A DNA stretch of 64,000 bases from an uncultured Actinomycetes bacterium (GCA_963742525.1 CAVUMD010000002.1:168025-232024), one strand, 5' to 3'. Shown: positions 32,965 to 47,106, counted from the stretch's first letter. Numbers and translations are program-made. Notes: generated from the sequence alone by a model not told the origin.

Positions 32965-33063
32965 GGCCGGAGGCCGGCTTGGCCGGCCGGGAGGCCAGGC
33001 ACGGGTCGTCCGTGCGCTGCGCTGAAGGAGGGGGTCGGTGGGGGAACCATGGGTTCCCCCACC
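32965..33063 (-). repeat. ~100-nt structured intergenic repeat, copy A (minus orientation), directly 3' of the ASCH gene stop
   Basis: The reverse complement reads GGTGGGGGAACC-cat-GGTTCCCCCACC GACCCCCTCCTTC ... GGCC TCCC GGCCGGC caa GCCGGCC TCC GGCC. It aligns with copies B, C and D. Confidence 0.8.
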
Positions 33064-33064
33064 C

Positions 33065-33427
33065 TTAGAACATCGTCCCGACGATCTGCGAGAAGCGGAT
33101 CACCGTGACGGTGTCCTCGTGGGCGACCGGCCGGTTGTACAGCCGTGCCAGCCACTCGACGAACTCGTCGACGCGACGGATCTCGGGATTGTCGTGCTCG
33201 ATCTCACGTGGCGAGAGGTCGGAGAGCGGCTTGACGTCGACCTTGTCGATCACCGCGTCGAACACCTTCTCGCGCTGGCCGTACCGTGCGCCGACGAGGA
33301 CCGTCACGATCATGCCCTTGCGGTACTTGGCGGACTTGTCGCCCAGGCGGATCGTCGCGGTCTTGCGGCCCGTGCGGAGTTGGTCGGCCACGACCGGCGA
33401 GTAGAAGTTGAGCGCGAACGTCGGCAA
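33065..33427 (-). CDS. ASCH (PUA-like) domain protein
   Basis: 120 aa with the N-terminal motif LRTGRKTATIRLG typical of ASCH domains. Confidence 0.65.
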   Translation of the reverse strand: MPTFALNFYSPVVADQLRTGRKTATIRLGDKSAKYRKGMIVTVLVGARYGQREKVFDAVIDKVDVKPLSDLSPREIEHDNPEIRRVDEFVEWLARLYNRPVAHEDTVTVIRFSQIVGTMF

Positions 33428-33456
33428 GGCGTGTCGAGCCTAACGGCTCGAAACGC

Positions 33457-33906
33457 CTAGCGAAACCCTTCTGCGGTCACTGCCTCGAGCGCCTTCAGGG
33501 CCATCTCGCGCTCGCCGCCGTAGGAGAGCACGGTCGCCGCGTCGTCGAGCGGCACCCAGCGCGCCTCGGCGACCTCGATCTCCATACCCGGCGGCAGATC
33601 GCCGATGCGGCCGCCGACCGCGCGGAGGAGGAAGAACGAGACGACCTTGAACACGCGCTCGCCTTCCCAGGTGTAGACGTAGCGGACGTCGCCGAGCTTC
33701 CGCTCGCCCGCCGCGCGGAGCCCCGTCTCCTCGTGGACCTCGCGGATCGCGGTCTCGAGCCCGCGCTCGCCCTCGTCGATGAGCCCCTTCGGCAGGGCCC
33801 AGACCTGCGGCCGATGGCGCTCCCGACGCGGTCGCACGATGGCGGCCCACCAGCGTCCGCGCATCCGGCGGACGACGACGCCGCCGGCGGAGAACTGGCG
33901 AGGCAT
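33457..33906 (-). CDS. NUDIX hydrolase
   Basis: 149 aa with Nudix box GLIDEGERGLETAIREVHEETGL. Confidence 0.87.
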   Translation of the reverse strand: MPRQFSAGGVVVRRMRGRWWAAIVRPRRERHRPQVWALPKGLIDEGERGLETAIREVHEETGLRAAGERKLGDVRYVYTWEGERVFKVVSFFLLRAVGGRIGDLPPGMEIEVAEARWVPLDDAATVLSYGGEREMALKALEAVTAEGFR

Positions 33907-34006
33907 GCCTACGATTGTCGCCGATCGGAGCAGAACCGGAAATCTGCGTCGAGTGGACGCAGATCAACTGCCTCGCACACCGGCGCAACCTGCTATAACA
34001 CAGGTG

Positions 34007-34033
34007 TCGGCACTCTCATGTCGAGAGTGCCAA
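34007..34033 (+). promoter_or_regulatory. CIRCE element (HrcA operator) upstream of groES
   Basis: TCGGCACTC-tcatgtcga-GAGTGCCAA matches the consensus TTAGCACTC-N9-GAGTGCTAA. It lies 44 nt upstream of the groES ATG. Confidence 0.8.
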
Positions 34034-34076
34034 GAAGCCCGAAGTGTCCTGCAACTGTCTCTAGGGAGGCACACGT

Positions 34077-34409
34077 ATGAATCTGCAGCCCCTGGGTGAC
34101 CGCCTGATCGTGGAGGTCCTCGACGAGGAGCCCACCACGGCCAGCGGCATCGTGCTGCCCGACACGGCACAGGAGAAGCCGCAGCGCGGCAGGGTCCTGT
34201 CGGTCGGACCCGGCCCGCGCGACGAGGACGGGGAGTACATCAAGATGGACGTGGAGGAGGGTGACGAGATCATCTTCTCCAAGTACGGCGGCACCGAGAT
34301 CAAGATCGGCGCCGACGATGTTCTGATCCTGCGCGAATCGGATGTGCTCGCGAAGGTCGTAACCACGGGTGGCAAGGGCAAGCGCAAGCTCGCCGGCGCC
34401 GCCGCCTAG
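34077..34409 (+). CDS. groES: co-chaperonin GroES (with ~14-aa basic C-terminal extension)
   Basis: 110 aa (MNLQPLGDRLIVEVLDEEPTTASGIVLPDTAQEKPQRGRVLSVGPG...). The tail is TTGGKGKRKLAGAAA. Confidence 0.94.
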   Translation: MNLQPLGDRLIVEVLDEEPTTASGIVLPDTAQEKPQRGRVLSVGPGPRDEDGEYIKMDVEEGDEIIFSKYGGTEIKIGADDVLILRESDVLAKVVTTGGKGKRKLAGAAA

Positions 34410-36068
<1,659 letters not shown>

Positions 36069-36071
36069 CAA

Positions 36072-36169
36072 CGTGGGGGAACCACATGGTTCCCCCACGA
36101 GCCCCCTCCTTCCGGTCGTTCGCGGATCGAGCGGGCTTGGGCTCCCGCCGGGCAAGCCCGGCTCCGCCC
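36072..36169 (+). repeat. ~100-nt structured intergenic repeat, copy B, starting 4 nt after the groEL stop
   Basis: CGTGGGGGAACC-acat-GGTTCCCCCACG AGCCCCCTCCTTC ... GGGC TCCC GCCGGG caag CCCGGC TCC GCCC. Confidence 0.8.
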
Positions 36170-36195
36170 GCGAAGCACCTTTCACCAGAACGCTC

Positions 36196-36220
36196 GAGGG
36201 GCCGGCCAGTCCGGCCCCTC
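36196..36220 (+). terminator. hairpin downstream of groEL and repeat B
   Basis: GAGGGGCCGG-ccagt-CCGGCCCCTC, a perfect 10-bp stem followed by GTCGTTGG. Confidence 0.55.
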
Positions 36221-36340
36221 GTCGTTGGTGGCACGCGCGGCGGGCGCTAGCACCCGTGCGCGTCCTTCAGCACTCGGCAAGCGCGCGCCATCCGCGCGGG
36301 TGGTGCACAGGCTGCGTGTCGATCCGCAAGAATCGCTGCG

Positions 36341-37586
36341 ATGACGCTCTGGTCAGGCCGTGTCGGCGGGAAGCTCGACCCCGCCGTGTGGGAGCTGCTC
36401 CGTGCGAACGACGCGGAGCTCCTCCCGTACGACTGCGCGGCGACAGCCGAGCACGCGGCGCGGCTGCACGGCGCCGGCCTCCTCGACACGGATGAGCTCG
36501 CGGACGTCGAGGAGCGCCTCGCGGCGATCGCGCACGATCCGGCTGCACTCGTGAAGGGCGACGAAGACGTCCATTCCGCAATCGAGCGGCTACTAGGCCC
36601 GGTCGGTCGCAAGATCCACGCGGGGCGGTCGCGGAACGACCAGGTCGCCGCGGCGTTCCGCCTCTACGTCGCCGACGGCTGTGCCGAGGCGCGCGAGGAG
36701 ATCGACGCGCTCGCGCTCGTGACCCTGTCCTTCGCGGAGACGGAGGCGGAGACGCTGATGCCGGGCTACACGCACCTCCAGCGCGGCCAGCCGGTCACCC
36801 TCGGGCACCACCTGCTGGCATGGGTCGAGATGATCGACCGCGACCGCACGCGCTTCGCCGCCGCCGCGGAAGCCGCCGCGGAGAGCCCTCTCGGCGCCGG
36901 GGCGCTTGCCGGCTCGACGCTCGGGATCGACCCGCCGGCGTCCCAGATGCGGAACTCGGTCGATGCGGTCTCGGACCGCGACTTCGCGCTCGACTACCTC
37001 TACGCGGCCGCGATGCACGCGCAGCACCTCTCCCGGATCGGCGAGGAGATCGTCCTCTGGTCGACCGCCGAGTTCGGTTTCGTGCGCCTCCCCGAGAACG
37101 CCTCGACGGGGTCGTCGATGATGCCGCAGAAGCTGAACCCCGACGTCGCCGAGCTCGTCCGCGGCAAGGGCGGGCACCGCGATCGGGCGCCTCGCCGGGC
37201 TTCTCGCGACGGTGAAGGGCCTGCCGCTCGCCTACGACCGCGACCTGCAGGAGGACAAGCCGCCCGTGTTCGCCGCCCGCCGCGACGTCCGCGACTCGCT
37301 CCGGGGGATGACCGTGCTCGTCAGCGGTCTCGCCGCGAACCGCGAGCGGCTCGCCGAGGCCGTCGCCGACCCACTCCTGCTCGCCACCGACGTCGCCGAG
37401 GAGCTCGTCCGCGGAGGGATTCCGTTCAGGGAGGCGCACGAGCAGGTCGCCGCGTCGGTGCGCGACGGGACGTTCGCGGCAGGGACCACCGCTGCCGAGA
37501 GCGTCGCTGCGCGCCCGACCCCGGGCCCGGGCGGCGTGCGCGACGCGATCGCCTCGGCGCGGAAGCGTTTCGGCCAGGGCGTGTAG
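36341..37586 (+). pseudogene. argH: argininosuccinate lyase, interrupted by a single-base frameshift near 37168
   Basis: ORF 36341..37603 is ArgH-like up to ...GSSMMPQKLNPDVAELVRGK, then turns Arg-rich. ORF 37212..37586 carries the C-terminal part (KGLPLAYDRDLQEDK...). Deleting one G in AAGGGCGGG restores K-A-G-T-A-I-G-R-L-A-G-L-L-A-T-V-K-G-L-P. Confidence 0.85.
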
Positions 37587-37661
37587 CCGCGCCGCGGCTG
37601 TGACGCCGGCCGGTGCCGGCGGCGTATCTCCGGATGCAACCCACCTCCGGAGGACATCCAG

Positions 37662-38354
37662 ATGAAGCGCATCGCACTCGCCACCGGCCTCTTGTTCGTC
37701 GTCGCCGCACTCGCCGGCGTGCTCCGTCCCGACGGGGCCGGGGCGGCCGACCCGACAACGACGACCGACACGGTCAGCGTGACGGGAACAGGCTCCGTCG
37801 ACGCGGTGCCGGACCGGGCCGAGGTCTCCGCGGGGGTCGAGACGCGGGCCGCGACGGCGAAGGCGGCCCTGACCGCGAACGGCGCCGCGATGCAGAAGGT
37901 CATCGCCGCGCTCCGGGCGAACGGCGGCAAGGACGTCACGACGCAGACGGTCTCCCTCTCCAGCGCGTACGGCGACAACGGGCAGGCGAACGGCTTCGTC
38001 GCCTCGAACGTCGCCTCGGCGGAGACATCACTCGACGGGGCGGGTGCGCTGATCGACGCAGCGGTCGCCGCCGGTGCGAACACGATCTACGGCCCGTCGC
38101 TCTCGCGCTCGGACGCCGACGCGCTCTACCGGCAGGCGCTCGCGAAGGCCGTCGACGACGCGAAGGCCCGGGCCGAGATCCTGGCGAAAGCCGCAGGACG
38201 CTCGCTCGGCCGGGTGACGGCGATCGCCGAGTCCGGATCCGCTGCCCCTGTCCCGTACGCCGCGAAAGCCTCGGCAGCGCAGGACTCGACGCCCGTCGTC
38301 TCCGGCTCCGAGGAGACGACCGCGTCGGTGAGCGTCACGTTCGAACTGACCTGA
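37662..38354 (+). CDS. SIMPL/DUF541 family secreted protein
   Basis: 230 aa with a signal peptide, then ...VSVTGTGSVDAVPDRAEVSAGVE... typical of the SIMPL/26-kDa periplasmic immunogenic protein family. Confidence 0.75.
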   Translation: MKRIALATGLLFVVAALAGVLRPDGAGAADPTTTTDTVSVTGTGSVDAVPDRAEVSAGVETRAATAKAALTANGAAMQKVIAALRANGGKDVTTQTVSLSSAYGDNGQANGFVASNVASAETSLDGAGALIDAAVAAGANTIYGPSLSRSDADALYRQALAKAVDDAKARAEILAKAAGRSLGRVTAIAESGSAAPVPYAAKASAAQDSTPVVSGSEETTASVSVTFELT

Positions 38355-38360
38355 ACCCGC

Positions 38361-38395
38361 TTCGGCCGGGGCCTCGTCACGAGGCCCCGGCCGAA
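38361..38395. terminator. bidirectional hairpin between convergent SIMPL and amt genes
   Basis: TTCGGCCGGGGCCTCG-tca-CGAGGCCCCGGCCGAA, a perfect 16-bp stem. Confidence 0.65.
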
Positions 38396-38402
38396 AGTCT
38401 CC

Positions 38403-39797
38403 TCAGCCGGTCGCCGGTGCGGGGGGCGGCGCTGCGGGAGCGGGCGCGGCTCGCGGCGGTGAGACGCCGTGGTGGCCGTGGTGCTCCGTCCCATAGCCGC
38501 CGGGGACCGGGATGTAGAACTCGGGGTAGCCCCACATGCCGTGCTCGGAGACGTCGAGCCCGGCAGCTTCGACTTCGGGCTCCGTCCGGATCCCGACCGT
38601 CACCTTCATCACCCAGAGGATGAGGAACGACGCCGTGAAGGTGAACGCGCCCACCGCGACGAGGCCGAGCGCCTGGATGCCGAGCTGGTGAAGCCCGCCG
38701 CCGTAGAAGAGGCCGCCCTGGCCCCAATCGAGCGATTCCGCGAGCTTCGGCACGGTCAGGAACCCGAGCGAGAGCGTCCCCCACACCCCGGCCATGCCGT
38801 GCGCCGCAAGTGCGCCGACCGGGTCGTCGATCCCGATCTTCTCGACGAGGAGAACGCCGACCACGACGATCGCACCGGCGACGAGCCCGATGATGATCGC
38901 CGCCCACGGGGCGACGAACGCGCACGCGGCGGTGATCGCGACGAGGGCGCCGATCGCGCCGTTCAGCATCATCGAGAGGTCTGGCTTCCGGATCACGATC
39001 CAGGCGGTGGTCATCGCGCCGATGACGCCGGCCGCCGCCGCGAGGTTCGTGTTCAGCGCGACATAGGCGAAGAAGCCGACGCCGCCGTAGTCGACGCTCA
39101 GGGTCGAGCCGGGGTTGAACCCGAACCAGCCGAACCAGAGGATGAAGACGCCGAGCGTCGTGTACGCCATGTTGTGGCCGGGGATCGCCTGCGGCTTGCC
39201 GCCGACGAACTTCCCGATCCGCGGGCCGAGCAGCAGCGCGCCGGCGAGCCCAGCGAGAGCGCCCTGGTAGTGGACGACCGTCGAGCCGGCGAAGTCCTGC
39301 ATGCCCTTTGCGAACAGCCATCCGTCCCCGCTCCAGATCCAGTGGGAGACGACCGAGTAGATCAGCGTGTAGGCAAGACCGAACACGATGTACACCCAGA
39401 GGCGTGCCCGTTCCGCCATCGCGCCCCAGACGATTGCGAGCGACACTGCCGCGAACGCCGTCTGGAAGAGGAGCGCCGCGCCCGCCGGGATCGCGCCGAA
39501 CCACGAGAACGGCTCCTTGCCCACGGCAAGCAGCTCGTCCACCGTCGGCAGGAACCCGGAGCCGCCGACGATGCCGTTGCCGCCGTCGCCGAAGGCGAGG
39601 CCGAACCCGACGAGGTAGTAGACGATCGCCGCGATCCCGAGCACGAGCGCGTTCTTCGCGGCAATGTGCCCGACGTTCTTCATCCGCGTGAGACCCGCCT
39701 CGAGGAAGGCGAAGCCCGCCTGCATGAACAAGACGAGGACCGCCGCGATCACGACCCAGAGAGTGCTCGCGGCCAGGCCGAGCTCTTCCGTCGTCAT
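38403..39797 (-). CDS. amtB: ammonium transporter (Amt family)
   Basis: ORF 38403..40181 trimmed to ATG 39797 (MTTEELGLAASTLWVVIAAVLVLFMQAGFAFLEAGLTR...), an ATGA overlap with the PII gene stop. About 464 aa with a His/Pro/Ala-rich C-terminal tail. Confidence 0.92.
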   Translation of the reverse strand: MTTEELGLAASTLWVVIAAVLVLFMQAGFAFLEAGLTRMKNVGHIAAKNALVLGIAAIVYYLVGFGLAFGDGGNGIVGGSGFLPTVDELLAVGKEPFSWFGAIPAGAALLFQTAFAAVSLAIVWGAMAERARLWVYIVFGLAYTLIYSVVSHWIWSGDGWLFAKGMQDFAGSTVVHYQGALAGLAGALLLGPRIGKFVGGKPQAIPGHNMAYTTLGVFILWFGWFGFNPGSTLSVDYGGVGFFAYVALNTNLAAAAGVIGAMTTAWIVIRKPDLSMMLNGAIGALVAITAACAFVAPWAAIIIGLVAGAIVVVGVLLVEKIGIDDPVGALAAHGMAGVWGTLSLGFLTVPKLAESLDWGQGGLFYGGGLHQLGIQALGLVAVGAFTFTASFLILWVMKVTVGIRTEPEVEAAGLDVSEHGMWGYPEFYIPVPGGYGTEHHGHHGVSPPRAAPAPAAPPPAPATG

Positions 39798-40144
39798 ACG
39801 ACCTCCACCTCCTCCAGCTTCTGACCTGTCCTGTTGTGGGTCACGTTGGCGACGGGCGACATCCAGGCGATCCCGTCGCCGTTCGGATGCCCCGTGCGCG
39901 CGGCGTCGGCGATCGCCTCGACGACGCTCTCCGCGATCGCGTCGGGGACGACGAACGTGAGGTGCGCCTTGGGCAGGAACCGCGACTCGAACACGCGGCC
40001 GCGGTACTCGTGCGTGATCCCCTTCTCGCGGCCGTGCCCGACCGCCTCGACCACGGTCACGCCGACGTGGCCCGTCTGCTCCTCGACCGCCTCCATGACC
40101 GTCTCGACGCGGTCGCGGACCACCACAGCCTCCACCTTCATCAC
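39794..40144 (-). CDS. divergent PII (GlnB/GlnK-family) signal protein
   Basis: 116 aa that aligns with GlnB over its full length (VGHGREKGITHEYRGRVFESRFLPK...TGHPNGDGIAW). The T-loop is one residue longer. Tyr51 is replaced by Phe and Lys90 by Ile. Confidence 0.85.
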   Translation of the reverse strand: MMKVEAVVVRDRVETVMEAVEEQTGHVGVTVVEAVGHGREKGITHEYRGRVFESRFLPKAHLTFVVPDAIAESVVEAIADAARTGHPNGDGIAWMSPVANVTHNRTGQKLEEVEVV

Positions 40145-40168
40145 TCCGAATCACCTCCTCGGTCCACG

Positions 40169-40215
40169 AAAAAAGCCCCACCTCTCGCCGCGCGAGAGAT
40201 GAGGCGCCATTGCCT
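40169..40215 (-). promoter_or_regulatory. 5' leader element of the PII-amt operon: hexaloop hairpin overlapping a terminator-like hairpin plus U6
   Basis: The minus-strand RNA reads AGGC-AAUGGC-GCCU (40215-40202). GCCUCAUCUCUCGC-gcg-GCGAGAGGUGGGGC (40205-40175, 14 bp including 2 G-U) is followed by UUUUUU (40174-40169). It ends about 8 nt upstream of the GAGGAGG RBS. Confidence 0.55.
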
Positions 40216-40437
40216 GCCGCGGGGTCGTCGTCGTCCCCGCTGAGCCCACCCTAGAGAATCAGGCGGACCGCGCGCAAGTGCGAAGGTTCGGTTTTCCGCA
40301 CTGGCCGACCGCCGGAGCAGGGTGCTAGTCTCGCCCCGATGCTGCTCGGTATCTAGGACATCCGTTGCCGAGGCCCGCCTGGCGCGGAGCCTCTTTCTGC
40401 ACGTCCTGGATACCGCACTCGAAGGGAGAGCATCATC

Positions 40438-41277
40438 GTGAAGGAGTTGTCGCCCGTCCCGTCCGATGCACTGGCCGTGGCAACGCACGACCTGCGCAAG
40501 GAGTTCGTCCGCAAGGACAGAAAGCGCGGCAAGCGTCGTGTCGCGGCACTCGAGGACGTCACGCTCGAGGTCGCGCGCGGCGAGTGCGTCGCGATCCTCG
40601 GCCAGAACGGCTCGGGGAAGTCCACGCTCGTCCGGCTGCTCTCGACGCTGCTCCTGCCGGACGGCGGCACCGCGCGGGTCTTCGGCTACGACGTCGTTCG
40701 CGAGGACAAGGCCGTCCGCCGCCTCGTCAACAGGGTCTCGGTCGAGGCGAGCTTCTTCAAGAAGATGTCGCCCTCCGAGAACCTCCACTACGCGGCGCGG
40801 TTCTACGGCATGACGCTGTCGGAGACATCGGGGCAGATCCCGGAGATCCTCGGGCGAGTCGGGTTCCCGCCCGATCGGCGCACCGAGCCGATGGAGAACC
40901 TCTCCCGCGGGATGCAGCAGAAGGTTGCCCTCGCGAGGGCGCTTCTCACCTCGCCTGTCCTGCTCCTGCTCGACGAGCCGACGACCGGCCTCGACCCACG
41001 CTCGAAGCTCGAGGTGCAGAACTTCATCCGCGAGATGCGGGCGGCGCACGACTCGACGATCCTCCTCTGCACCCACGACCTCGGCGAGGCCGAAGCGCTC
41101 GCAGAGCGGGTGGGGATCCTCGACCGCGGCCGGCTGCTCGCGCTCGAGCCGGCCGAGCAGCTGAAGGCGCGATTCGAGGCGGAGACGCTCGAGGAGGCGT
41201 TCTTCGCCGCCACCGGGCGTGGGTTCGAGGAGGAGGAGGACGAGATGGACGCCGAGGAGAGGAGGGTCCTCGCATGA
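40438..41277 (+). CDS. ABC transporter ATP-binding protein (ABC-2 exporter type)
   Basis: 279 aa with a GTG start. Walker A GQNGSGKST, signature LSRGMQQK and Walker B LLLLDEPT. Confidence 0.9.
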   Translation: MKELSPVPSDALAVATHDLRKEFVRKDRKRGKRRVAALEDVTLEVARGECVAILGQNGSGKSTLVRLLSTLLLPDGGTARVFGYDVVREDKAVRRLVNRVSVEASFFKKMSPSENLHYAARFYGMTLSETSGQIPEILGRVGFPPDRRTEPMENLSRGMQQKVALARALLTSPVLLLLDEPTTGLDPRSKLEVQNFIREMRAAHDSTILLCTHDLGEAEALAERVGILDRGRLLALEPAEQLKARFEAETLEEAFFAATGRGFEEEEDEMDAEERRVLA

Positions 41278-42107
41278 GAGCCGTCGCCCTCGAGCTGAAG
41301 CACGAGCTGATCGGCCTCGCCGGCGTCGTCGAGCGGAACGTCTACCTCACGCGGCGCTACATCTACTGGGACCTCGCGTTCTTCGTCTGGACCGTTGCCA
41401 ACACGCTCACGATCGTCTTCATCGCGAAGGGGATCGAGGCGACCGGCGGCTCGATCGACGTCGACCGCGCGACGACGACGCTCCTGATCGGGGCCGTCGT
41501 CTGGGCGTACCTCGGGATCATCTTCGAGTTCCTCACCGAGACGGTCGCATGGGAGCGATGGGAGGGGACGATCGAGTACACGTTCATGGCGCCGCTCTCC
41601 CGGGCGATGCACCTCGGCGGCTCCGGCGTCTTCGCGGTGCTCTACGGGCTCGTCCGCGCGATCCTGCTGTTCATCGTCGTGGCGCTGTTCTTCGGCCTGG
41701 CGTTCGAGGACGCGAACTTCGCGGCGGCGCTCGTGATCCTCATCGTTGCGTCTGTCTCGTTCTTCGGCATCGGGATGATGACCGCGGTCCTGCCGCTCAT
41801 CTCCCCGGAGAAGGGCGCCCAGCTCGGGTTCGTCGCCCAGGGCATGCTGCTCGTCGTTTCGGGCGTCTACTACCCGGTCGAGGTCCTGCCGGAGTGGATG
41901 CAGTGGCTGGCGAAGATCTCGCCCGCGACGTACGCGCTCGACGGGATCCGGGCCGCAATCCTCGACGGCGCGCCGCTCGGGTCGCTCTGGCACGACATCT
42001 GGCCGCTCCTGATCATCGGCGCGGTCTGCATTCCGCTCGGCCTGGCGATCTTCAACCGCGGCGAGGTGTACGCCAAGCGGCATGGCAAGCTGAAGCGGTC
42101 CGGATGA
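41274..42107 (+). CDS. ABC-2 type transporter permease
   Basis: In ORF 40365..42107 from ATG 41274 (ATGA overlap). Six predicted TM segments. Confidence 0.82.
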   Translation: MRAVALELKHELIGLAGVVERNVYLTRRYIYWDLAFFVWTVANTLTIVFIAKGIEATGGSIDVDRATTTLLIGAVVWAYLGIIFEFLTETVAWERWEGTIEYTFMAPLSRAMHLGGSGVFAVLYGLVRAILLFIVVALFFGLAFEDANFAAALVILIVASVSFFGIGMMTAVLPLISPEKGAQLGFVAQGMLLVVSGVYYPVEVLPEWMQWLAKISPATYALDGIRAAILDGAPLGSLWHDIWPLLIIGAVCIPLGLAIFNRGEVYAKRHGKLKRSG

Positions 42108-43078
42108 GCGTCGACGCGGACCTCGAGATCACCGAGCTCGCCCTCGACGACCGCGCGGGTCACGAGGCGTACGCGGCCGTCTGGAGCGCCGTGGTGCCGC
42201 GGTACCCGATCACCGCGGACGAGCTCGAACGGCGCCGCGTGCGCAAGCCCGACGACGTTCGCGTGATCGGCAGGATCGACTGGGCGGTCGCGGGCTGCGC
42301 CTCCGCGGTCCGCTCCGACCTGCCGGGCCGGACGTACATGGGCAACGTCGTCCTGCCGGAATACCGCCGCCGCGGGCTCGGTCGCGCGCTTCTCGAGCGC
42401 GTCGTCGTGGCTGCGAGGGCGCACGGGAGCGACGCCCTCGCGGTCGGGGTCGAGGAGGGAGACGAGGCCGGCGAGCGGTTCGCGGCGCGGTTCGGGCTTT
42501 GCGAGGTCTTGCGCGAGCTCGAGATCTCGCGTCCGGTCGGGCAAGGCGAGCCGGATCCCACACCACCCGAGGGAATCGTGCTCGTCGAGCTCGCCCGACA
42601 ACCGGATCTCTGCCGGGGTGCGTACTCGGTGGCGTGCGAGGCGCTCCGGCAGATGCCGCTCCACGCCCCGCTCGAGCTGCCCTCCTACGAGCGGTGGATG
42701 GACGAGGACGTGGCCGGACCGGACGTTCTCGAAGGCGGCACGCTGGTCGCTCTCGACGGCGAGCGTGTCGTCGGGTTCGTCAGCCTGCTCCGCCGCGCCG
42801 CCGACCCGCACCTCGCCGAGCATGGTCTCACCTCGGTCGCCGCGAGCCACCGCAACCGGGGCATCGCAACCGCGCTCAAGCAGGCGCAGATCTCGTGGGC
42901 ATCGCGGAACGGCTTCCGCGAGCTGATGACCTCGACGCAGGACGCGAACGCGCCGATGCGGGCCGTGAACGACAAGCTCGGGTACGAGCCGCGGCCCGCC
43001 TGGATCCGCCTCGAGGCACCGCTCGACGAGGTCGAGGCGGCGCTGGCGGCCGACGCCGGGCTGCGGCGCCGAGGCTAG
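42104..43078 (+). CDS. tandem-GNAT N-acetyltransferase (MshD-like architecture)
   Basis: In ORF 41219..43078 from ATG 42104 (ATGA overlap). Two acetyl-CoA motifs: VLPEYRRRGLGRALL and ASHRNRGIATALK. Confidence 0.75.
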   Translation: MSVDADLEITELALDDRAGHEAYAAVWSAVVPRYPITADELERRRVRKPDDVRVIGRIDWAVAGCASAVRSDLPGRTYMGNVVLPEYRRRGLGRALLERVVVAARAHGSDALAVGVEEGDEAGERFAARFGLCEVLRELEISRPVGQGEPDPTPPEGIVLVELARQPDLCRGAYSVACEALRQMPLHAPLELPSYERWMDEDVAGPDVLEGGTLVALDGERVVGFVSLLRRAADPHLAEHGLTSVAASHRNRGIATALKQAQISWASRNGFRELMTSTQDANAPMRAVNDKLGYEPRPAWIRLEAPLDEVEAALAADAGLRRRG

Positions 43079-43365
43079 CCGCGGCGGACGGACGCCCGGG
43101 CCCTGATGGGGATCGGTTCGGGCGGGCGTTGCGGGGAGAGCGGCAGCAGCCCTCGCCGGATGGCGAGCACCACGGCGTGCGTCCCGTTCCGCGCGCCGAG
43201 CTTCGCGATGATGCGCTTGCGGTACCCCTTGACGGTCTCGGAGGAGAGGTAGAGGCGCGCGCCGGTCTGGGCGGCGGTCTCACCCTCCGCGGCGGCGGCG
43301 AGGATCTCGGTCTCGCGGTCGGTGAGCGGCTCCCCTTGCAGCACCTCGGCGAGCAGGCTGGTCAT
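43075..43365 (-). CDS. LuxR-family HTH-only protein (96 aa)
   Basis: ORF 43075..43644 trimmed to ATG 43365 (MTSLLAEVLQGEPLTDRETEILAAAAEGETAAQTGARLYLSSETVKGYRKRIIAKLG). ATGA overlap with the upstream sigma gene stop. Confidence 0.75.
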   Translation of the reverse strand: MTSLLAEVLQGEPLTDRETEILAAAAEGETAAQTGARLYLSSETVKGYRKRIIAKLGARNGTHAVVLAIRRGLLPLSPQRPPEPIPIRARASVRRG

Positions 43366-43892
43366 GCCGCGCGTCTCCTGACCCGGGTCGAGCCGTTGTG
43401 CACGAGCGTGTACACCCGGTCGGCGCTGACACCGAGGTCCTTCGCGACGTCGGCCGCGGTGTCGCCGTCGACCATCGTCCGGATGAGCGCGATGCGCTCT
43501 CGCTCCGGGATCGTCCCGAGCACGCGCAGTCGGTCGAGGTTCTCGACCGTGTCGTGCGGCGTGGGGCCGGGATCCGGGGGCTCGTACGCCTGGTCGCTCC
43601 TGACATTGTCCGTCAGGGCCGCGAACCCGACCACGTCGACCCAACGTCCGTTGCCGAGCGTGTTGCGGCGCGCACGGCTGCGGACGGTGTCCGTGATGGC
43701 GCCGCGGACGTACGGCGTCGCGAAGGCGGGGAACGGGACGCCGTACGACGGGTCATACCGCTTGGCCGCCTTCGCGAGCGCGAGGTTGCCGTCGGCGACG
43801 AGGTCTTCCTGTTCGAGCGGGGTGTGTGCCCAGCGCCTCGCTTCACGGCGCGGCAGGTGGAGTGCTTGCTCGACGAGCGTCTCTTCGGTCAT
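43362..43892 (-). CDS. sigma-70 family RNA polymerase sigma factor (small, ECF/group 3-4 like)
   Basis: 176 aa. Region 2-like DLVADGNLALAKAAKRYDPSYGVPFPAFATPYVRGAI and region 4 HTH TAADVAKDLGVSADRVYTL. Confidence 0.75.
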   Translation of the reverse strand: MTEETLVEQALHLPRREARRWAHTPLEQEDLVADGNLALAKAAKRYDPSYGVPFPAFATPYVRGAITDTVRSRARRNTLGNGRWVDVVGFAALTDNVRSDQAYEPPDPGPTPHDTVENLDRLRVLGTIPERERIALIRTMVDGDTAADVAKDLGVSADRVYTLVHNGSTRVRRRAA

Positions 43893-44170
43893 GCGCGAGT
43901 CGTGCCTCCTGAGTGGGGGACAGGGGCGACCGCAGCGGCGTCGTCACGCGCGGTTCGACGGTTCCGTTGGGGGATTGGGTCGCTTTGCATGGGGGGGCAT
44001 GCTTGGCGTCTGGCCCGAAGGCCGGTAACGGAAGGTCAAGACCCTACCAGGCGCATCGGCCGGGCGGACCGTGAACGGGAGTCAACGGTCCGGGCGTGAC
44101 GCGAGCGGCCGGCTCGTCCGGTGACGGCTGCCGACCGGCGGGTCGGAGTGGTAGTCTCACGCATGCTTTT

Positions 44171-44220
44171 CGAGGCAACGGGGCCTCGGGCGCGGAGTAT
44201 CCGTGCCCGAGGCTTTTGTC
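44171..44220 (+). promoter_or_regulatory. 5' leader element of glnA: hexaloop hairpin overlapping a terminator-like hairpin plus U-tract
   Basis: CGAGGC-AACGGG-GCCUCG (44171-44188). GCCUCGGGCGCGGA-gua-UCCGUGCCCGAGGC (44183-44213, 14 bp including 1 G-U) is followed by UUUUGUCGUUUUC. The AGGAGG RBS is at 44230-44235. Confidence 0.6.
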
Positions 44221-44241
44221 GTTTTCAAGGAGGAGACACCC

Positions 44242-45660
44242 ATGGCGAGACCTAGGTCGACCGGCGCGGCGAGCCGCTCCACGATGGTGAAGTCGAAGGA
44301 TCGCGCGACGTCGAGCGTCGCGTCGCGTCGGGCGGTTCTCAAGCGGATGCGCGACGAGGACGTGGAGCACGTCCTCTTCTGGTTCACCGATCTCGAGGGC
44401 CACCTGAAGTCGTTCGCCATCACCCCGTCGGAGATCCCGGACGCGCTGGACGACGGCATGGGATTCGACGGTTCGTCGATCACCGGCTTCAACCGGATCG
44501 AGGAGTCGGACATGGTCGCGATCCCCGACCCGGCGACGTTCCAGCTGCTGCCGCGGCCTGTCGACGAGCACGGCCATGAGGTCGGCTCGAAGGTCGCCCG
44601 CATGATCTGCGACGTCGTCCGCCCCGACGGCACGCCGTACAACGGCGACCCGCGCAACGTCCTCCGCGCGGCGCTCGACCGCATGAGGTCGCTGGGCTTC
44701 GACACGTTCAACGTCGGCCCGGAGCTCGAGTACTTCCTCTTCGAGGACGACAAGGATACGAAGACGCTCGACGAGGGCGGCTACTTCGCGATGACCGCGC
44801 AGGACGCCGCCACCGAGGTGCGCAACGACACGATCCATGCGCTGGAGTCGGTCGGCATCCCGATCGAGTACCACCACCACGAGGTCGCCCCGTCGCAGCA
44901 CGAGATCGACATGCGCTACGCCGACGCGCTCGCGATGGCCGACCACTGCATGACGTACCGGCTGATCGTGAAGGAGGTCGCGGCATGGCACGGCTACTAC
45001 GCGACCTTCATGCCGAAGCCGCTCTTCGGCGAGAACGGGTCGGGCATGCACACGCACATGTCGCTGTTCAAGAACGGGCGCAACCAGTTCTTCGACGCGA
45101 AGGACCCCCATCACCTCTCGAAGACGGCAAAGGCGTTCATCGCCGGGCTGCTCGTGCACGCGCGCGAGATGTCGGCCGTGCTCGCGCAGTGGGTCAACTC
45201 GTACAAGCGGCTCGTCCCCGGCTTCGAGGCGCCGGTCTACGTCGCGTGGTCGCAGCGCAACCGCTCGGCGCTGATCCGGATCCCGCTCTACAAGCCGGGG
45301 GAGGAGCAGGCGACCCGCGCGGAGATCCGCTGCCCCGACCCGGCCTGCAACCCCTACCTCGCGTTTGCGGCGCTGCTCCATGCCGGTCTCGAGGGGATCG
45401 AGCGCGGCTACGAGCTGCCGGACGAGATGACCACGAACCTCTACCGGCTCTCGGACGAGGAGCGTGAGGAGCAGGGCGTCGAGGCGCTGCCCGGCTCGCT
45501 CGGGGAGGCCGTCGAGGCGCTCGCTGGCTCGGAGCTCATGTCCCGTGCCCTCGGCGAGCACATTTTCCCGCGCTATGTCGAGCTCAAGCGGCGCGAGTGG
45601 GACGAGTACCGGATCCAGGTCAGCGAGTGGGAGAAGCGGCGCTACCTCTCCTCGCTCTAG
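44242..45660 (+). CDS. glnA: glutamine synthetase, type I
   Basis: ORF 44203..45660. Start chosen at ATG 44242, 6 nt after AGGAGG. Motifs FDGSSI, GPELEYFLF, EYHHHEVAPSQHEIDMRY, GSGMHTHMSL and NRSALIRIP. Confidence 0.93.
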   Translation: MARPRSTGAASRSTMVKSKDRATSSVASRRAVLKRMRDEDVEHVLFWFTDLEGHLKSFAITPSEIPDALDDGMGFDGSSITGFNRIEESDMVAIPDPATFQLLPRPVDEHGHEVGSKVARMICDVVRPDGTPYNGDPRNVLRAALDRMRSLGFDTFNVGPELEYFLFEDDKDTKTLDEGGYFAMTAQDAATEVRNDTIHALESVGIPIEYHHHEVAPSQHEIDMRYADALAMADHCMTYRLIVKEVAAWHGYYATFMPKPLFGENGSGMHTHMSLFKNGRNQFFDAKDPHHLSKTAKAFIAGLLVHAREMSAVLAQWVNSYKRLVPGFEAPVYVAWSQRNRSALIRIPLYKPGEEQATRAEIRCPDPACNPYLAFAALLHAGLEGIERGYELPDEMTTNLYRLSDEEREEQGVEALPGSLGEAVEALAGSELMSRALGEHIFPRYVELKRREWDEYRIQVSEWEKRRYLSSL

Positions 45661-45784
45661 CACTGGACATCGCTCGCCCGATGGCGCATGATCTCCGATG
45701 CGGAGGGAGCCGCTAGGCGAGCGGCGCCTTCCGTGTCTGACGGCCGATCGCGGGTCCCCGGTGGGGGCCCGTGGTCGTTCCGGC

Positions 45785-45885
45785 GATGGGGGAAACCATG
45801 ATTCCCCCACGGCCCCCTTCTTCTCGGGTCGCGCACGGGTGCGCCGCGCGCTTGGCCTCCCGCCGGGCTGAGCCCGGCTCCGGCC
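45785..45885 (+). repeat. ~100-nt structured intergenic repeat, copy C (most diverged), in the glnA 3' region
   Basis: GATGGGGGAA-accatga-TTCCCCCAC GGCCCCCTTCTTC ... GGCC TCCC GCCGGGC tga GCCCGGC TCC GGCC. Followed by hairpin CGCCGGCCG-acgcaca-CGGCCGGCG. Confidence 0.75.
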
Positions 45886-45920
45886 GCCGGCCGACGCACA
45901 CCGGCCGGCGTTCTCGCGTG

Positions 45921-46385
45921 TCAGGGTTTCCAGACCATGAGTGCGACGATGGCGACCGTCGCGACGAGCATCGAGCCGTCGAGAGTCAGTGCGACCGGGT
46001 CGCGGAGGCGTCGTGCGAGCTCGGGTGACGGAGTCTCGCGCTCGGCGGCCTCGCGTTCGGCCAGCTCGCGCGTCTTGCGGTCGAGCCTGCCGGCCACTGC
46101 GCCCGCGACGCCGAGCCACACGATCAACACGTAGGCCGCCTGCAGCCACCCGGAGTCGTACGGGACACGCAGCTCGTCGGCCAGCCAGACGCCCGCCCCC
46201 AGGGTCAGCAGCAGCCCCGTGCCGACGAGGGGCACGAGCGGCCGGACGGCACGCAGCAGGACGGCGCTCTCCGACGGTCGCTCCTTCCCGATCGCGAGGA
46301 GCCGCAACGCGGTCACGGCGATGCTGCCGCCGACGAACACGAGCACGCCCGAGAGGTGCAGGAAGAGGGCCCAGTCGCGCGCCAT
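45921..46385 (-). CDS. DUF2269/CopD-like 4-TM membrane protein
   Basis: 154 aa (MARDWALFLHLSGVLVFVGGSIAV...). Shares the LH-LS---V-VGG motif with the divergent neighbour at 46636. Confidence 0.65.
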   Translation of the reverse strand: MARDWALFLHLSGVLVFVGGSIAVTALRLLAIGKERPSESAVLLRAVRPLVPLVGTGLLLTLGAGVWLADELRVPYDSGWLQAAYVLIVWLGVAGAVAGRLDRKTRELAEREAAERETPSPELARRLRDPVALTLDGSMLVATVAIVALMVWKP

Positions 46386-46469
46386 CCGCCCGCGAAACTA
46401 GCGGCCGCGAAGCAGCCGATGCCTCGGTCGAAACCCGTAGCCTGAGGCCCTTGATGACCGCGCTCCAAA

Positions 46470-46569
46470 CGCGGGGGAACCACATGGTTCCCCCGCGAGC
46501 CCCCTCCTTCTGCGTCCGGCACGGGCGACCCGCGCTTGGCCTCCCGCCGGGCCGAGCCCGGCTTCGGCC
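46470..46569 (+). repeat. ~100-nt structured intergenic repeat, copy D, in the divergent region upstream of the CopD-like/pdtaS genes
   Basis: CGCGGGGGAACC-acat-GGTTCCCCCGCG AGCCCCCTCCTTC ... GGCC TCCC GCCGGGC cga GCCCGGC TTC GGCC. Confidence 0.8.
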
Positions 46570-46635
46570 GCGACCGGTGTCGCACCGATGTTCGGTGAGG
46601 GCGTCGACTCCCGTAGAGGATGGAGAGCGAAGGTG

Positions 46636-47106
46636 ATGACCGCGCTCCGGATCCTGCACGTGCTGTCGGCCTGCGTCTGGGTCGGCGGCACCGTGGCGCT
46701 CGTCTTCATCGGCGTGCCGGCGATCCGGCAGCTCGAAGGCGAGGCGCGCGCGACGGCCATGCGGGCGCTCGGTCGCCGCTGGCGCCCGATCGGGTGGAGC
46801 GCGATGGCGGTGGCGATCATCTCCGGCCTCTGGCTCACCGACCGGCACGGCGGCTTCGACCGCGCGGCGCTCGACACGGATTTCGACCGAACGCTCATCC
46901 TCAAGTCGGTGCTGGTCGCGCTGCTCGTCGTCGGCGGCCTGCTCCACGACTACGTCCTCGGACCGCGGCTGCAGCGGGAGCTCCGCTCCCGCGACGCGTC
47001 GGCGCCAGCGACCCGGCGGCGCCTCGTGCTCGTCGGCTGGTTCAACTTCGGGCTCACGATCGCCGTGCCGGCGCTCGGCGCAGTCGTGCTGTCGACCTTG
47101 GACTGA
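46636..47106 (+). CDS. CopD/DUF2269-like 4-TM membrane protein
   Basis: ORF 46588..47106 trimmed to ATG 46636 (MTALRILHVLSACVWVGGTVALVFIGVPAI...). GTG 46633 is an alternative start. Confidence 0.65.
   Translation: MTALRILHVLSACVWVGGTVALVFIGVPAIRQLEGEARATAMRALGRRWRPIGWSAMAVAIISGLWLTDRHGGFDRAALDTDFDRTLILKSVLVALLVVGGLLHDYVLGPRLQRELRSRDASAPATRRRLVLVGWFNFGLTIAVPALGAVVLSTLD

Follow-up and report, generated by a model that had tools for sequence, protein, structure and literature searches.

The window analysed here, a 64,000-nucleotide stretch of DNA from an uncultured Actinomycetes bacterium, carries four intergenic copies of a hairpin-bearing element of approximately 100 nt, and these raise the question of whether such an element acts as RNA or moves as DNA. 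Our analysis points to the second answer: the four copies are probably members of a family of mobile DNA repeats that are small, non-coding and non-autonomous, and probably do not serve as a dedicated regulatory RNA. The repeat family is confined to certain lineages of soil actinobacteria in the order Gaiellales (class Thermoleophilia), and neither Rfam nor the literature searched describes it.

Results

The four copies, designated A to D, proved to be real and to lie at the coordinates and in the orientations that an earlier note, made from the sequence alone, had assigned to them, and their gene context, including the placement of copies A and B behind stop codons, was as described there. 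Copies A and B are full-length. Copy A (32965-33063, minus strand) consists of hairpin 1 (33037-33063), the pyrimidine tract CCCCCTCCTTC (33024-33034) and a bipartite 3′ hairpin (32965-32996); it lies in the gap between convergent ASCH and zinc-ribbon genes and starts 1 nt past the ASCH stop codon (33065-33067). Copy B (36072-36169, plus strand; hairpin 1 at 36072-36099, tract at 36102-36112, 3′ hairpin at 36139-36169) starts 3 nt past the groEL stop codon (36066-36068). Farther downstream, near 36196-36220, comes a G+C-rich hairpin whose counterpart follows groEL in element-free relatives. Copy C (45785-45885, plus strand) is full-length but degraded: hairpin 1 (45785-45811) has one mismatch (GGGGGAAAC/GATTCCCCC), the tract (45813-45823) is a variant, CCCCCTTCTTC, and the 3′ hairpin occupies 45854-45885. 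The copy begins 5 nt beyond a conserved 118-nt element, R (45662-45779), which itself lies 3′ of glnA. Copy D (46470-46569, plus strand) comprises hairpin 1 (46470-46497), the tract (46500-46510) and the 3′ hairpin (46538-46569).

The window is 70% G+C, a composition in which hairpins are common, and we considered whether the copies in such G+C-rich intergenic sequence could be chance look-alikes or an artefact of assembly. The hairpin motif, however, matched six times in the window against a chance expectation of 0.05 matches, the 3′ hairpin pattern gave two exact-type matches where none was expected, and motif counts were far above those of shuffled sequence. The element moreover recurs in independent ENA, JGI and NCBI assemblies, and five contigs of the one species agree at 99.7-99.8% identity over the four loci. 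These results refute the chance or artefact reading, the probability of which is practically negligible. An HMM built on the 5′ part detected no extra copies in the window.

In all, 151 copies were counted in 1.96 Mb of fetched Gaiellales loci, and at least 117 matching stretches were found in genome contigs, almost all of them Gaiellaceae, Gaiellales or Thermoleophilia MAGs. Among groEL loci, which represent a sample not selected for presence of the element, those of close relatives held five copies in 273 kb, confined to two of 25 loci, and those of more distant relatives held none in 668 kb. Neither Rfam nor plasmid and phage collections returned a match, and the element, which had not been recognised earlier as a known RNA family, belongs to no Rfam family. 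The minimal unit of approximately 45 nt is a 12-13-bp perfect palindrome (CRY-GGGGGAACC, a 3-4-nt loop and GGTTCCCCC-RYG) followed by two purines and then CCCCCTCCTTC; in longer forms a free-sequence spacer, 26-32 nt long, leads on to a second hairpin whose internal loop is C-rich, and some copies have a further 3′ extension. This bipartite hairpin, present in about half of the copies, lies 3′ of a same-strand core in 81 of 84 instances, with a spacing of 26-32 nt in 71. The element begins with CRYGGGGG... at one end and finishes with ...CCTCCTTC or the 3′ hairpin at the other; no terminal inverted repeats are present, all inverted repeats being internal hairpins. Stem variants are genome-specific among relatives (for example AACC/GGTT versus AAAC/GTTT), and tandem arrays occur at six loci (L021, L025, L055, L058, L075 and L078).

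The base-pair exchanges that had been put forward as compensatory were all reproduced by alignment: the outer pairs of hairpin 1 read CGTG/CACG in copy B, CGCG/CGCG in D and GGTG/CACC in A, the inner stem of the 3′ hairpin is GCCGGGC/GCCCGGC or GGCCGGC/GCCGGCC, and its outer stem is GGGC/GCCC or GGCC/GGCC. When 64 full-length copies drawn from many genomes were compared, 95.6% of the cells were paired, and changes on both sides were seen at nine pairs and in 107 cells, a result reached by none of 500 shuffles; the covariation score was 0.215 as compared to 0.065 for shuffled data, many of the cells being inherited within subfamilies rather than independent events. Predicted folds agree with hairpin 1 and the bipartite hairpin (z-scores of -4.05 for A, -5.67 for B, -3.34 for D and only -1.70 for C). 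These two hairpins of the three originally proposed were thus upheld, whereas the middle-segment hairpin was not, as the variable segment of approximately 26 nt showed no structure above shuffled sequence in the 64 copies (mean z -0.08) and is constrained in length alone (26-32 nt). The element is a discrete, modular, structured unit, the stems of which are maintained by compensatory change.

Among hairpin pairs 97-98% are Watson-Crick, and the proposed strand shows no surplus of G·U pairs (10 G·U versus 22 A·C, the latter being G·U on the opposite strand), in contrast to the neighbouring element R, which has many invariant G·U pairs. Such near-pure Watson-Crick pairing suits a DNA hairpin equally well and, taken with the loss of the tract in relatives described below, means that compensation does not imply a functional RNA. 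A role as intrinsic terminator was separately considered and rejected: no copy drew a terminator-like call, hairpin 1 being followed by AGCCCCC, and the lack of a canonical terminator score is due to the absence of a T-run after both hairpins.

Copy D was found to be an insertion with a target duplication, contrary to the initial statement that no target-site duplications exist. The whole insertion of 167 nt (46467-46633, plus strand), delimited by flanking repeats and by the empty site of a relative, begins with the filler AAA, followed by the element proper and by a 3′ extension of 64 nt that ends in a purine-rich, SD-like stretch, and it is flanked on the plus strand by a 15-bp duplication, TGATGACCGCGCTCC, at 46452-46466 and 46634-46648. 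The left repeat carries the relic start codon of a CopD-like gene (ATG, 46454-46456) and the right one its working start codon (ATG, 46636-46638), with which the CopD-like homologues of 156-157 aa, starting MTAL, are in agreement. In L237, a contig with a 97% identical CopD protein, the empty site reads uninterrupted (...GAGGCCCTTGATGACCGCCCTCCGGATCC...), while L233 and L235 share the insertion; the element is thus present or absent at this site among close relatives. The insertion created a short upstream reading frame of 60 codons (46454-46636, plus strand), which runs from the relic ATG through the element to a TGA (46634-46636) overlapping the real ATG (UGAUG). The same arrangement is found in L112, L094, L060 and L064, and in five of the five script-tested protein-gene cases the short frame terminates on the authentic start codon, the chance expectation being approximately (1/3)^5. 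Surviving insertions in the starts of protein genes leave the gene translatable.

Of the 151 copies, 33 (22%) are flanked by direct repeats that range in length from 13 nt up to at least 139 nt, and the left repeat of these ends at most 16 nt, and in nearly all cases 0-7 nt, from the hairpin base. A score of at least 19 was reached in the first scan by 24 of 111 copies as compared to one of 108 controls; short flanking repeats of 7-12 nt were not in excess. The repeats restore tRNA genes or gene ends, and in 12 of 13 scanned repeat-bearing loci an intact tRNA gene lies beyond the tract and a truncated copy beyond the hairpin. New copies come as insertions, the hairpin end of which meets the target via 0-7 filler bases; insertion inside a tRNA gene or gene end duplicates 13 to more than 130 bp of target, and the gene is then intact on the tract side and left as a truncated relic on the hairpin side. 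A duplication is undetectable in approximately three quarters of the copies, including all 52 stop-adjacent copies tested, and one insertion mechanism must consequently account for both outcomes. Searches of the window and the fetched loci yielded no transposase or other partner and no full-length parent element sharing the ends of the repeat, and no gene in 2 Mb was bounded by solitary half-sites.

Occupancy of the same sites in relatives is patchy which, together with the duplication and empty site of copy D and the duplications in 22% of the family, overturns the earlier view that the element is not obviously mobile. At the ASCH site the element is intact in L101, absent from L238 and decayed in two further relatives, the tract being gone in L240 and altered in L239, where part of hairpin 1 is also missing. 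In the 208-aa ASCH variants, the element lies in frame inside the gene. The groEL 3′ region is occupied in L016, L123 (partially), L125 and L131 and empty in L127-L130 and L132-L145, while the copy C position after R is also occupied in L234, L235 and L236, with compensatory differences between the relatives' copies. The core is strongly conserved at apparently the same sites despite approximately 73% identity at groEL third codon positions, and this conservation, together with the compensatory changes at the copy C site, requires repeated re-insertion, gene conversion or selection in place.

Full-length copies are co-directional with the upstream gene in 42 cases versus 12 ((+,+) 13 versus (-,-) 4), whereas core-only copies show little orientation bias (30 versus 20) and also occur within tRNA genes and the starts of reading frames. 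These observations bear on whether the element could be a functional RNA module, namely a co-transcribed or processed RNA of approximately 100 nt that spread because it is useful and whose unpaired C-rich tracts (CCCCCUCCUUC and the UCCC/UCC internal loop) pair with Shine-Dalgarno sequences, in cis on the gene downstream or in trans, while its hairpins protect it, which we regard as unlikely. Such a module would be in keeping with the covarying stems and conserved unpaired C-rich tracts, with the position of most full-length copies behind co-directional genes and adjoining stop codons, with two of the four window copies following groEL and glnA, which are usually highly expressed, and with a predicted partial pairing of the copy D tract with GAGGG of its own 3′ extension. 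C-rich seeds that target ribosome-binding sites are moreover known in other bacterial sRNAs, examples being the CCUCCUCCC motif of CcsR1 in Rfam and the UCCC motifs of staphylococci. The missing G·U surplus, which sets the element apart from R, the decay of the tract at the ASCH site, the lack of an element after groEL in most close relatives and the core-only copies lying both ways round and inside tRNA genes and frame starts all speak against it, as does the location of the tract within the short upstream frame in several copies. Comparison of tract and spacer with the downstream region gave no general complementarity (mean z 0.0), and on these sequence comparisons the anti-Shine-Dalgarno pairing appears disfavoured.

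Tight placement at gene ends does not follow from the mobile reading. A stop codon ends within approximately 4 nt of the hairpin in 55 of the 79 copies (70%) that lie behind a co-directional gene, convergent and co-directional gaps are enriched for copies and divergent gaps depleted, and multi-copy loci are mostly same-strand tandems, inverted pairs occurring only with each copy behind its own convergent gene. The stop-codon abutment, which neutral insertion does not predict, and the co-directional bias were counted against mobility, alongside the lack of a transposase, a parent element and terminal inverted repeats, the many copies with no duplication and the conservation at shared sites. Abutment and the distribution over gaps would be expected of a domesticated REP-like 3′-end element, that is, formerly mobile DNA kept at gene ends, where a post-stop hairpin would block 3′-5′ exonucleases, attenuate transcription or stall terminating ribosomes, thereby tuning the upstream gene. 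The compensatory differences at the copy C site agree with this reading, and published REP families lie between unidirectional and convergent genes and may even supply stop codons (PMC3733652). Here, however, the stop codons are native and none is supplied by the element, neither hairpin is followed by a T-run, copy B precedes the conserved G+C-rich hairpin behind groEL, presumably the native terminator, and same-site copies are decayed or missing in close relatives; domestication of this kind is accordingly judged quite unlikely.

Discussion

The family is best viewed as mobile DNA, and a mechanism can be proposed in which a factor encoded elsewhere in the genome would recognise the hairpin and tract, probably in DNA that is single-stranded and folded or forms a cruciform. 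Such recognition would explain why the stems are compensated and almost purely Watson-Crick, and also why each related genome has its own variant. The variable duplications may stem either from template switching in repair or from wide, variably staggered cuts like those reported for IS1549 and IS1634. Once inserted, copies would be co-transcribed passengers that may incidentally serve as 3′-UTR hairpins.

The element shares features with several known systems. Like the C-rich seed sRNAs (actinobacterial 6C, Rhodobacter CcsR and staphylococcal Rsa), it has unpaired C-rich motifs between stable hairpins that could, by analogy, pair with Shine-Dalgarno sequences; it differs from them in its dispersal as dozens to hundreds of copies, which lie in either orientation and also inside genes, and in having no promoter of its own, and the Rfam models of the 6C, CcsR and Rsa RNAs did not match it. 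IS1549 and IS1634 are 1.6-1.9 kb long, have terminal inverted repeats and encode a DDE transposase, whereas the element, at 45-170 nt, is non-coding and asymmetric, and no IS1634-type IS adjoins the copies in the window or fetched loci. Variable long direct repeats, here from 13 bp up to at least 139 bp, are common to both, those of IS1549 and IS1634 ranging from 8 to 514 bp by a mechanism that is not known (PMC2266710), and IS1549 is of actinobacterial origin; the element could be mobilised at most in trans.

MITEs such as Correia/NEMIS, ERIC, RUP and MITEAba12 are likewise small, non-coding, multi-copy, patchy and lineage-specific and, as may by analogy apply here, are co-transcribed with neighbouring genes and can alter flanking expression. 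The element differs from them in its lack of terminal inverted repeats and of a fixed short target duplication, repeats being absent or 13-139 nt long, and in its constant 5′ end and variable, modular 3′ end. Mycobacterial MIRUs contain short frames that overlap stop and start codons of the genes on either side; a stop/start-overlapping short frame was found here in five of five cases, and tandem arrays are a further likeness. MIRUs and the Rickettsia palindromic elements (RPE) mentioned in PMC3733652 stay open in reading frames, and the in-frame position of RPE within genes resembles that in the ASCH variants; neither is related to the element in sequence, and the short frame here stems from target duplication rather than being built into the repeat.

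REP/REPIN sequences differ from the element in having a GTAG or CGTC head, the 5′ flank here being A-R-CRY (position counts before GGGGG give A(54%)-R-C(88%)-R-Y, and TAG directly precedes CGT in only approximately nine of 140 copies, with a varying base ahead of the TAG). They also form inverted pairs rather than the single copies or same-orientation tandems seen here, and the conserved 11-nt pyrimidine tract, the optional second module and the long target duplications in 22% of copies set the element further apart; no RAYT (Y1 transposase) gene was noticed in the window or the inspected loci. Both, however, are short G+C-rich palindromes in many copies (here a hairpin 1 of 27-28 nt in 151 copies), with genome-specific variants, stems maintained by compensatory change, and a position behind genes in co-directional or convergent gaps, often touching stop codons.

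Results

In silico analysis of the window located all four copies of the ~100-nt element claimed by the earlier note, copy A at 32965-33063 on the minus strand and copies B, C and D on the plus strand at 36072-36169, 45785-45885 and 46470-46569 (for D, the element proper), with a mean column identity of 79% across an alignment in which each compensatory difference that the note had listed was found. The hairpin motif occurs six times in the window as compared to 0.05 expected, the pyrimidine tract six times as compared to 1.4, and the 3' hairpin pattern twice as compared to 0; an HMM of the 5' part detected no further copies in the window. Fold prediction recovered both hairpin 1 and the bipartite hairpin for each copy (z of -4.05, -5.67, -1.70 and -3.34 for A to D), and the gene context was as described, comprising ASCH, groES-groEL, glnA, DUF2269, CopD-like, PdtaS-like kinase and ANTAR regulator genes. 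The earlier observation is, for the most part, real.

When relatives were searched for copy number, the element proved to belong to a lineage-restricted family. When one genome per species was scanned with an exact pattern, at least 117 matching stretches were returned, nearly all in Gaiellaceae, Gaiellales or Thermoleophilia soil MAGs. In fetched loci (L-numbers) totalling 1.96 Mb, an HMM located the 5' part 151 times; this count covers the fetched loci and, as these were selected by exact pattern, favours well-preserved copies. Among groEL loci taken irrespective of the element, 2 of 25 close relatives carry it (at least 79% groEL identity, 273 kb), and it is absent from those of more distant relatives (668 kb). 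The conserved unit is the 5' module, or core, consisting of the palindrome of hairpin 1 and CCCCCTCCTTC, and the smallest inserts measure 43-47 nt. The bipartite hairpin (n=84) has a same-strand 5' module upstream in 81 cases, at a distance of 26-32 nt in 71, which makes it a component of a composite element, never found alone; about half of the cores lack it and have another hairpin type or nothing instead. Genome-specific variants occur among relatives, such as GGGGGAAAC/GTTTCCCCC or GGGGGGAAAC/GTTTCCCCCC, and GGGTGAACC is a recurrent 5'-arm variant (L006, L069 and others) in which one base pair is broken and a TGA created; at L006 and L069 the upstream gene terminates at this TGA, within the hairpin. 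One subfamily (L007, L018, L034, L041, L083, L084, L107, L024 and L104, with three copies in one MAG) has an extra conserved 3' extension of ~50 nt past the bipartite hairpin (...CTCACGGYAGGACGTGG...GGGCGTGGTCGTGTGG), and the family therefore has longer, lineage-specific forms.

As the earlier note had supposed, no Rfam family matched the element at gathering or permissive thresholds; blastn gave no match in plasmid and phage collections, and no description of Gaiellales repeats was found in the literature searched. A viral-contig scan yielded 30 matches (L203-L232), mostly in giant-virus MAG bins (GVMAG), and the GVMAG matches are taken to be Gaiellales contigs in wrong bins. Candidates for a parent IS in the fetched loci were considered and rejected: solitary half-hairpins proved to be imperfect hairpins, the sole truncated copy (L067) adjoins ordinary genes, and the gene between inverted copies at L075 appears by eye, from its translation, to be of an ordinary peptidase type and no transposase.

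The covariation on which the note had relied was borne out across 64 full-length copies, in which 95.6% of cells are paired and two-sided changes affect 9 pairs and 107 cells, a figure that no shuffle or slid structure approaches; three inner pairs of the 3' stem and one outer stem pair flip between G-C and C-G without any mismatch. By contrast, the third small hairpin proposed for the spacer did not hold, its folding energy being that of shuffles in the same 64 copies (mean z -0.08). No general excess of pairing was seen between the 3' extension and either tract or spacer (mean z 0.0), although such pairing is strong in a few copies. At L056 (minus strand, ~6315), L039, L026 and L077 the copy's own spacer and tract recur as their reverse complement directly after the bipartite hairpin, which gives a hairpin of ~110 nt tipped by the bipartite one.

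The hairpins are under constraint, and nothing in their pairing points to RNA on the proposed strand over DNA. The stems are almost wholly Watson-Crick, and the forward strand has 10 G·U as compared to 22 A·C, an A·C mismatch on that strand being G·U on the opposite one. The reading of the earlier note, a functional anti-SD RNA, may hold for some copies but is disfavoured, as the proposed strand shows no G·U surplus and the copies behave as mobile DNA, with insertion, duplications and patchy sites. Another reading, in which the reverse strand would supply a portable ribosome-binding site through GAAGGAGG and a GTG or ATG after it in the stem, looked promising at first but was rejected: not every outer stem provides a start codon, the frame is variable, and the gene at L093 keeps its own SD and GTG.

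A contrasting pattern is seen in R, a conserved non-coding element of 118 nt (45662-45779, plus strand) which starts 1 nt past the stop codon of glnA and in which, on the strand of that gene, many G·U pairs are invariant. R has a sigma-70-like promoter (TGGACA-17-CATGAT, 45664-45692), both hexamers of which are invariant across relatives, followed by two hairpins that combine compensatory changes with these G·U pairs, the last being terminator-like. It is also present in L028 and L233-L236, no Rfam family matched it, and it probably represents a separate sRNA gene of ~80 nt. In L233 (1820-2290) R lies inverted between two facing copies of the mobile element, one abutting the glnA stop codon and the other the DUF2269 stop codon, which suggests either inversion between inverted copies or independent insertions. 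L119 (19890-21632, set against the window from 44333 onward) is a contig of the same species and 99.8% identical; it departs from the window within the 5' part of glnA and continues into unrelated genes, probably owing to chimeric assembly, the alternative being a genuine rearrangement.

Copy D provides a direct record of insertion. In the window its locus reads ...CCCTTGATGACCGCGCTCC-AAA-(element + 64 nt)-TGATGACCGCGCTCCGGATCC..., and a contig encoding a 97%-identical CopD protein, with near-identical flanks, has an uninterrupted ...CCCTTGATGACCGCCCTCCGGATCC...; because of this uninterrupted site, copy D is identified as an insertion of 167 nt that duplicated 15 bp of its target. The insertion is also found in the more distant relatives L233 and L235, and therefore the close relative either lost it precisely or retains an old empty allele; in yet another relative the two genes are only 66 nt apart, implying that the site is empty there. 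Flanking direct repeats of 13-139 nt (81-100% identity) accompany 33 of the 151 copies, the left repeat ending 0-7 nt before the hairpin in nearly all (maximum 14), often after CA or CAG. In the first repeat scan scores above 19 were obtained for 24 of 111 copies and 1 of 108 controls; short flanking repeats of 7-12 nt were not enriched. The claim that the element is not obviously mobile has accordingly to be revised: terminal inverted repeats are indeed absent and no transposase was found in the window or the fetched loci, but target-site duplications, which had also been reported as absent, are present. An origin of the repeats by tandem duplication of an element already in place was rejected for copy D and L112, where the empty site and the upstream flank carry no element, and AT-rich islands at both duplication boundaries were set aside as a weak effect (AT 0.36-0.37 versus 0.31, p ~0.02-0.04).

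The duplicated part is always the gene portion that the insertion would have severed. In tRNA genes it is the 5' part, with or without the -10 box, and 12 of 13 ARAGORN-scanned loci with flanking repeats have one intact tRNA on the tract side; in protein genes it is the first 13-140 nt from the start codon (L112, L094, L060, L064, L062, L091 and copy D); and at ends of opposite-strand genes or tRNAs it is the last codons, from the stop codon (L012, L057, L053 and L025). Insertion points in tRNA genes lie mostly in loop regions, which fits, without proving, a single-stranded target. At L012 (~1650-1760) and L048 (~6920-6980) the working copy near the tract differs from the relic, the truncated leftover, by clustered A/T-enriching changes that leave function unaltered; those of L012 are synonymous and fall in the last 7 codons of gap, and at L048 the leader between intact -10 box and tRNA has diverged. 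Several loci have tandem arrays of copies. Occupancy is patchy: the groEL 3' site is filled in the window, L016, L125 and L131, partial in L123, and empty in L127-L130 and L132-L145, and the ASCH site holds an intact copy in the window and L101, a decayed one in L239 and L240 (hairpin part deleted, tract lost) and none in L238. The ASCH homologues P0133, P0232, P0138 and P0173 from public data have 165-208 aa instead of the usual 120, and in at least P0133 (...GTMF-SRVGGTHGSP...) and the L101 copy (~6400) the ASCH frame runs without a stop codon into the element, which is either a genuine lengthening of the C terminus or a fault of assembly or annotation.

In all five scripted protein-gene cases the frame opened by the relic start runs through the element to a TGA that overlaps the genuine start codon (ATGA, TTGA or TGATG), and two further protein-gene cases agree by hand count, the chance of a frame fit being 1/3 per case; at copy D the upstream short frame spans 46454-46636 on the plus strand. 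These frames show that such copies are apparently transcribed and translated through on the forward strand, and that selection has sieved which insertions survive. Such a survival filter can explain duplications whose first base coincides with a start codon or -10 box; provided that short duplications outnumber long ones, survivors would cluster at the shortest length that rebuilds the gene.

With gene strand assigned by codon-phase G+C, that is, by composition and no gene finder (an earlier crude ORF-caller count was discarded), the upstream gene of full-length copies is co-directional in 42 cases and opposite in 12, and within co-directional gene pairs the orientation is 13 versus 4; core-only copies give 30 versus 20 by the same count. 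The stop codon ends at most ~4 nt from the hairpin in 55 of 79 copies behind a co-directional gene, and these stop codons are native, as the same codon is kept at empty sites. Copy C lies 5 nt 3' of the terminator-like hairpin of R, and in an equal position in three relatives. Stop-adjacent copies have no flanking repeat or diverged relic duplication, even by sensitive alignment. Their tight placement may reflect a target preference for DNA made single-stranded where ribosomes quit the transcript, could result from later loss of useless relic copies, or might stem from selection for an effect like that of REP sequences. A REP-like function at 3' ends, acquired by domestication, may exist and would not conflict with mobility.

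Discussion

The most likely reading is a non-autonomous mobile repeat that a factor encoded elsewhere recognises by its hairpin and tract. A more specific proposal, which we advance tentatively and consider rather unlikely in full, is that the 45-nt unit of hairpin and tract inserts at the ends of transcription units by a mechanism undescribed for miniature elements, rebuilding the gene that is hit. Its targets would be tRNA-gene loops, the opening tens of bases in reading frames, and the position directly 3' of a stop codon or sRNA terminator; the hairpin end would be linked to the target via a few filler bases, and 13 to more than 130 bp of target would be re-copied, restoring the gene on the far side. 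Such a pattern would suggest that the target is single-stranded DNA laid open by transcription, or that insertion proceeds through template switching or reverse transcription, in preference to a classical cut-and-paste transposase. If the proposal is true, self-restoring duplication combined with stop-start translational coupling would be a general route by which essential genes in a compact genome could absorb insertions. The stop-start frames themselves illustrate how a gene may remain expressed after insertion in its first codons.

Gaiellales abound in soil and have hardly ever been cultured; the element family provides a marker for strain typing and for tracking genome change in this order. 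It also offers a caution for RNA discovery, in that compensatory change in a repeated hairpin alone does not prove a functional RNA. To our knowledge, long target duplications of variable length have otherwise been reported only for IS1549 and IS1634. A 45-nt element that behaves alike and leaves clean, datable scars in tRNA genes and gene starts is a simpler system in which to study the mechanism, none having been proposed so far for the long duplications of these two elements (review PMC2266710).

In size, copy number, location and lineage-specific variants the element is similar to REP elements and MITEs, and in its long, variable duplications to IS1549 and IS1634 (compared with PMC2266710). 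However, it has neither the GTAG or CGTC head nor the inverted pairs of REP elements, it has neither the terminal inverted repeats nor the fixed duplication length of MITEs, and, in contrast to IS1549 and IS1634, it encodes no transposase. Since the defining tests of each of these families fail, the element is placed in none of them and is regarded as a variant of its own.
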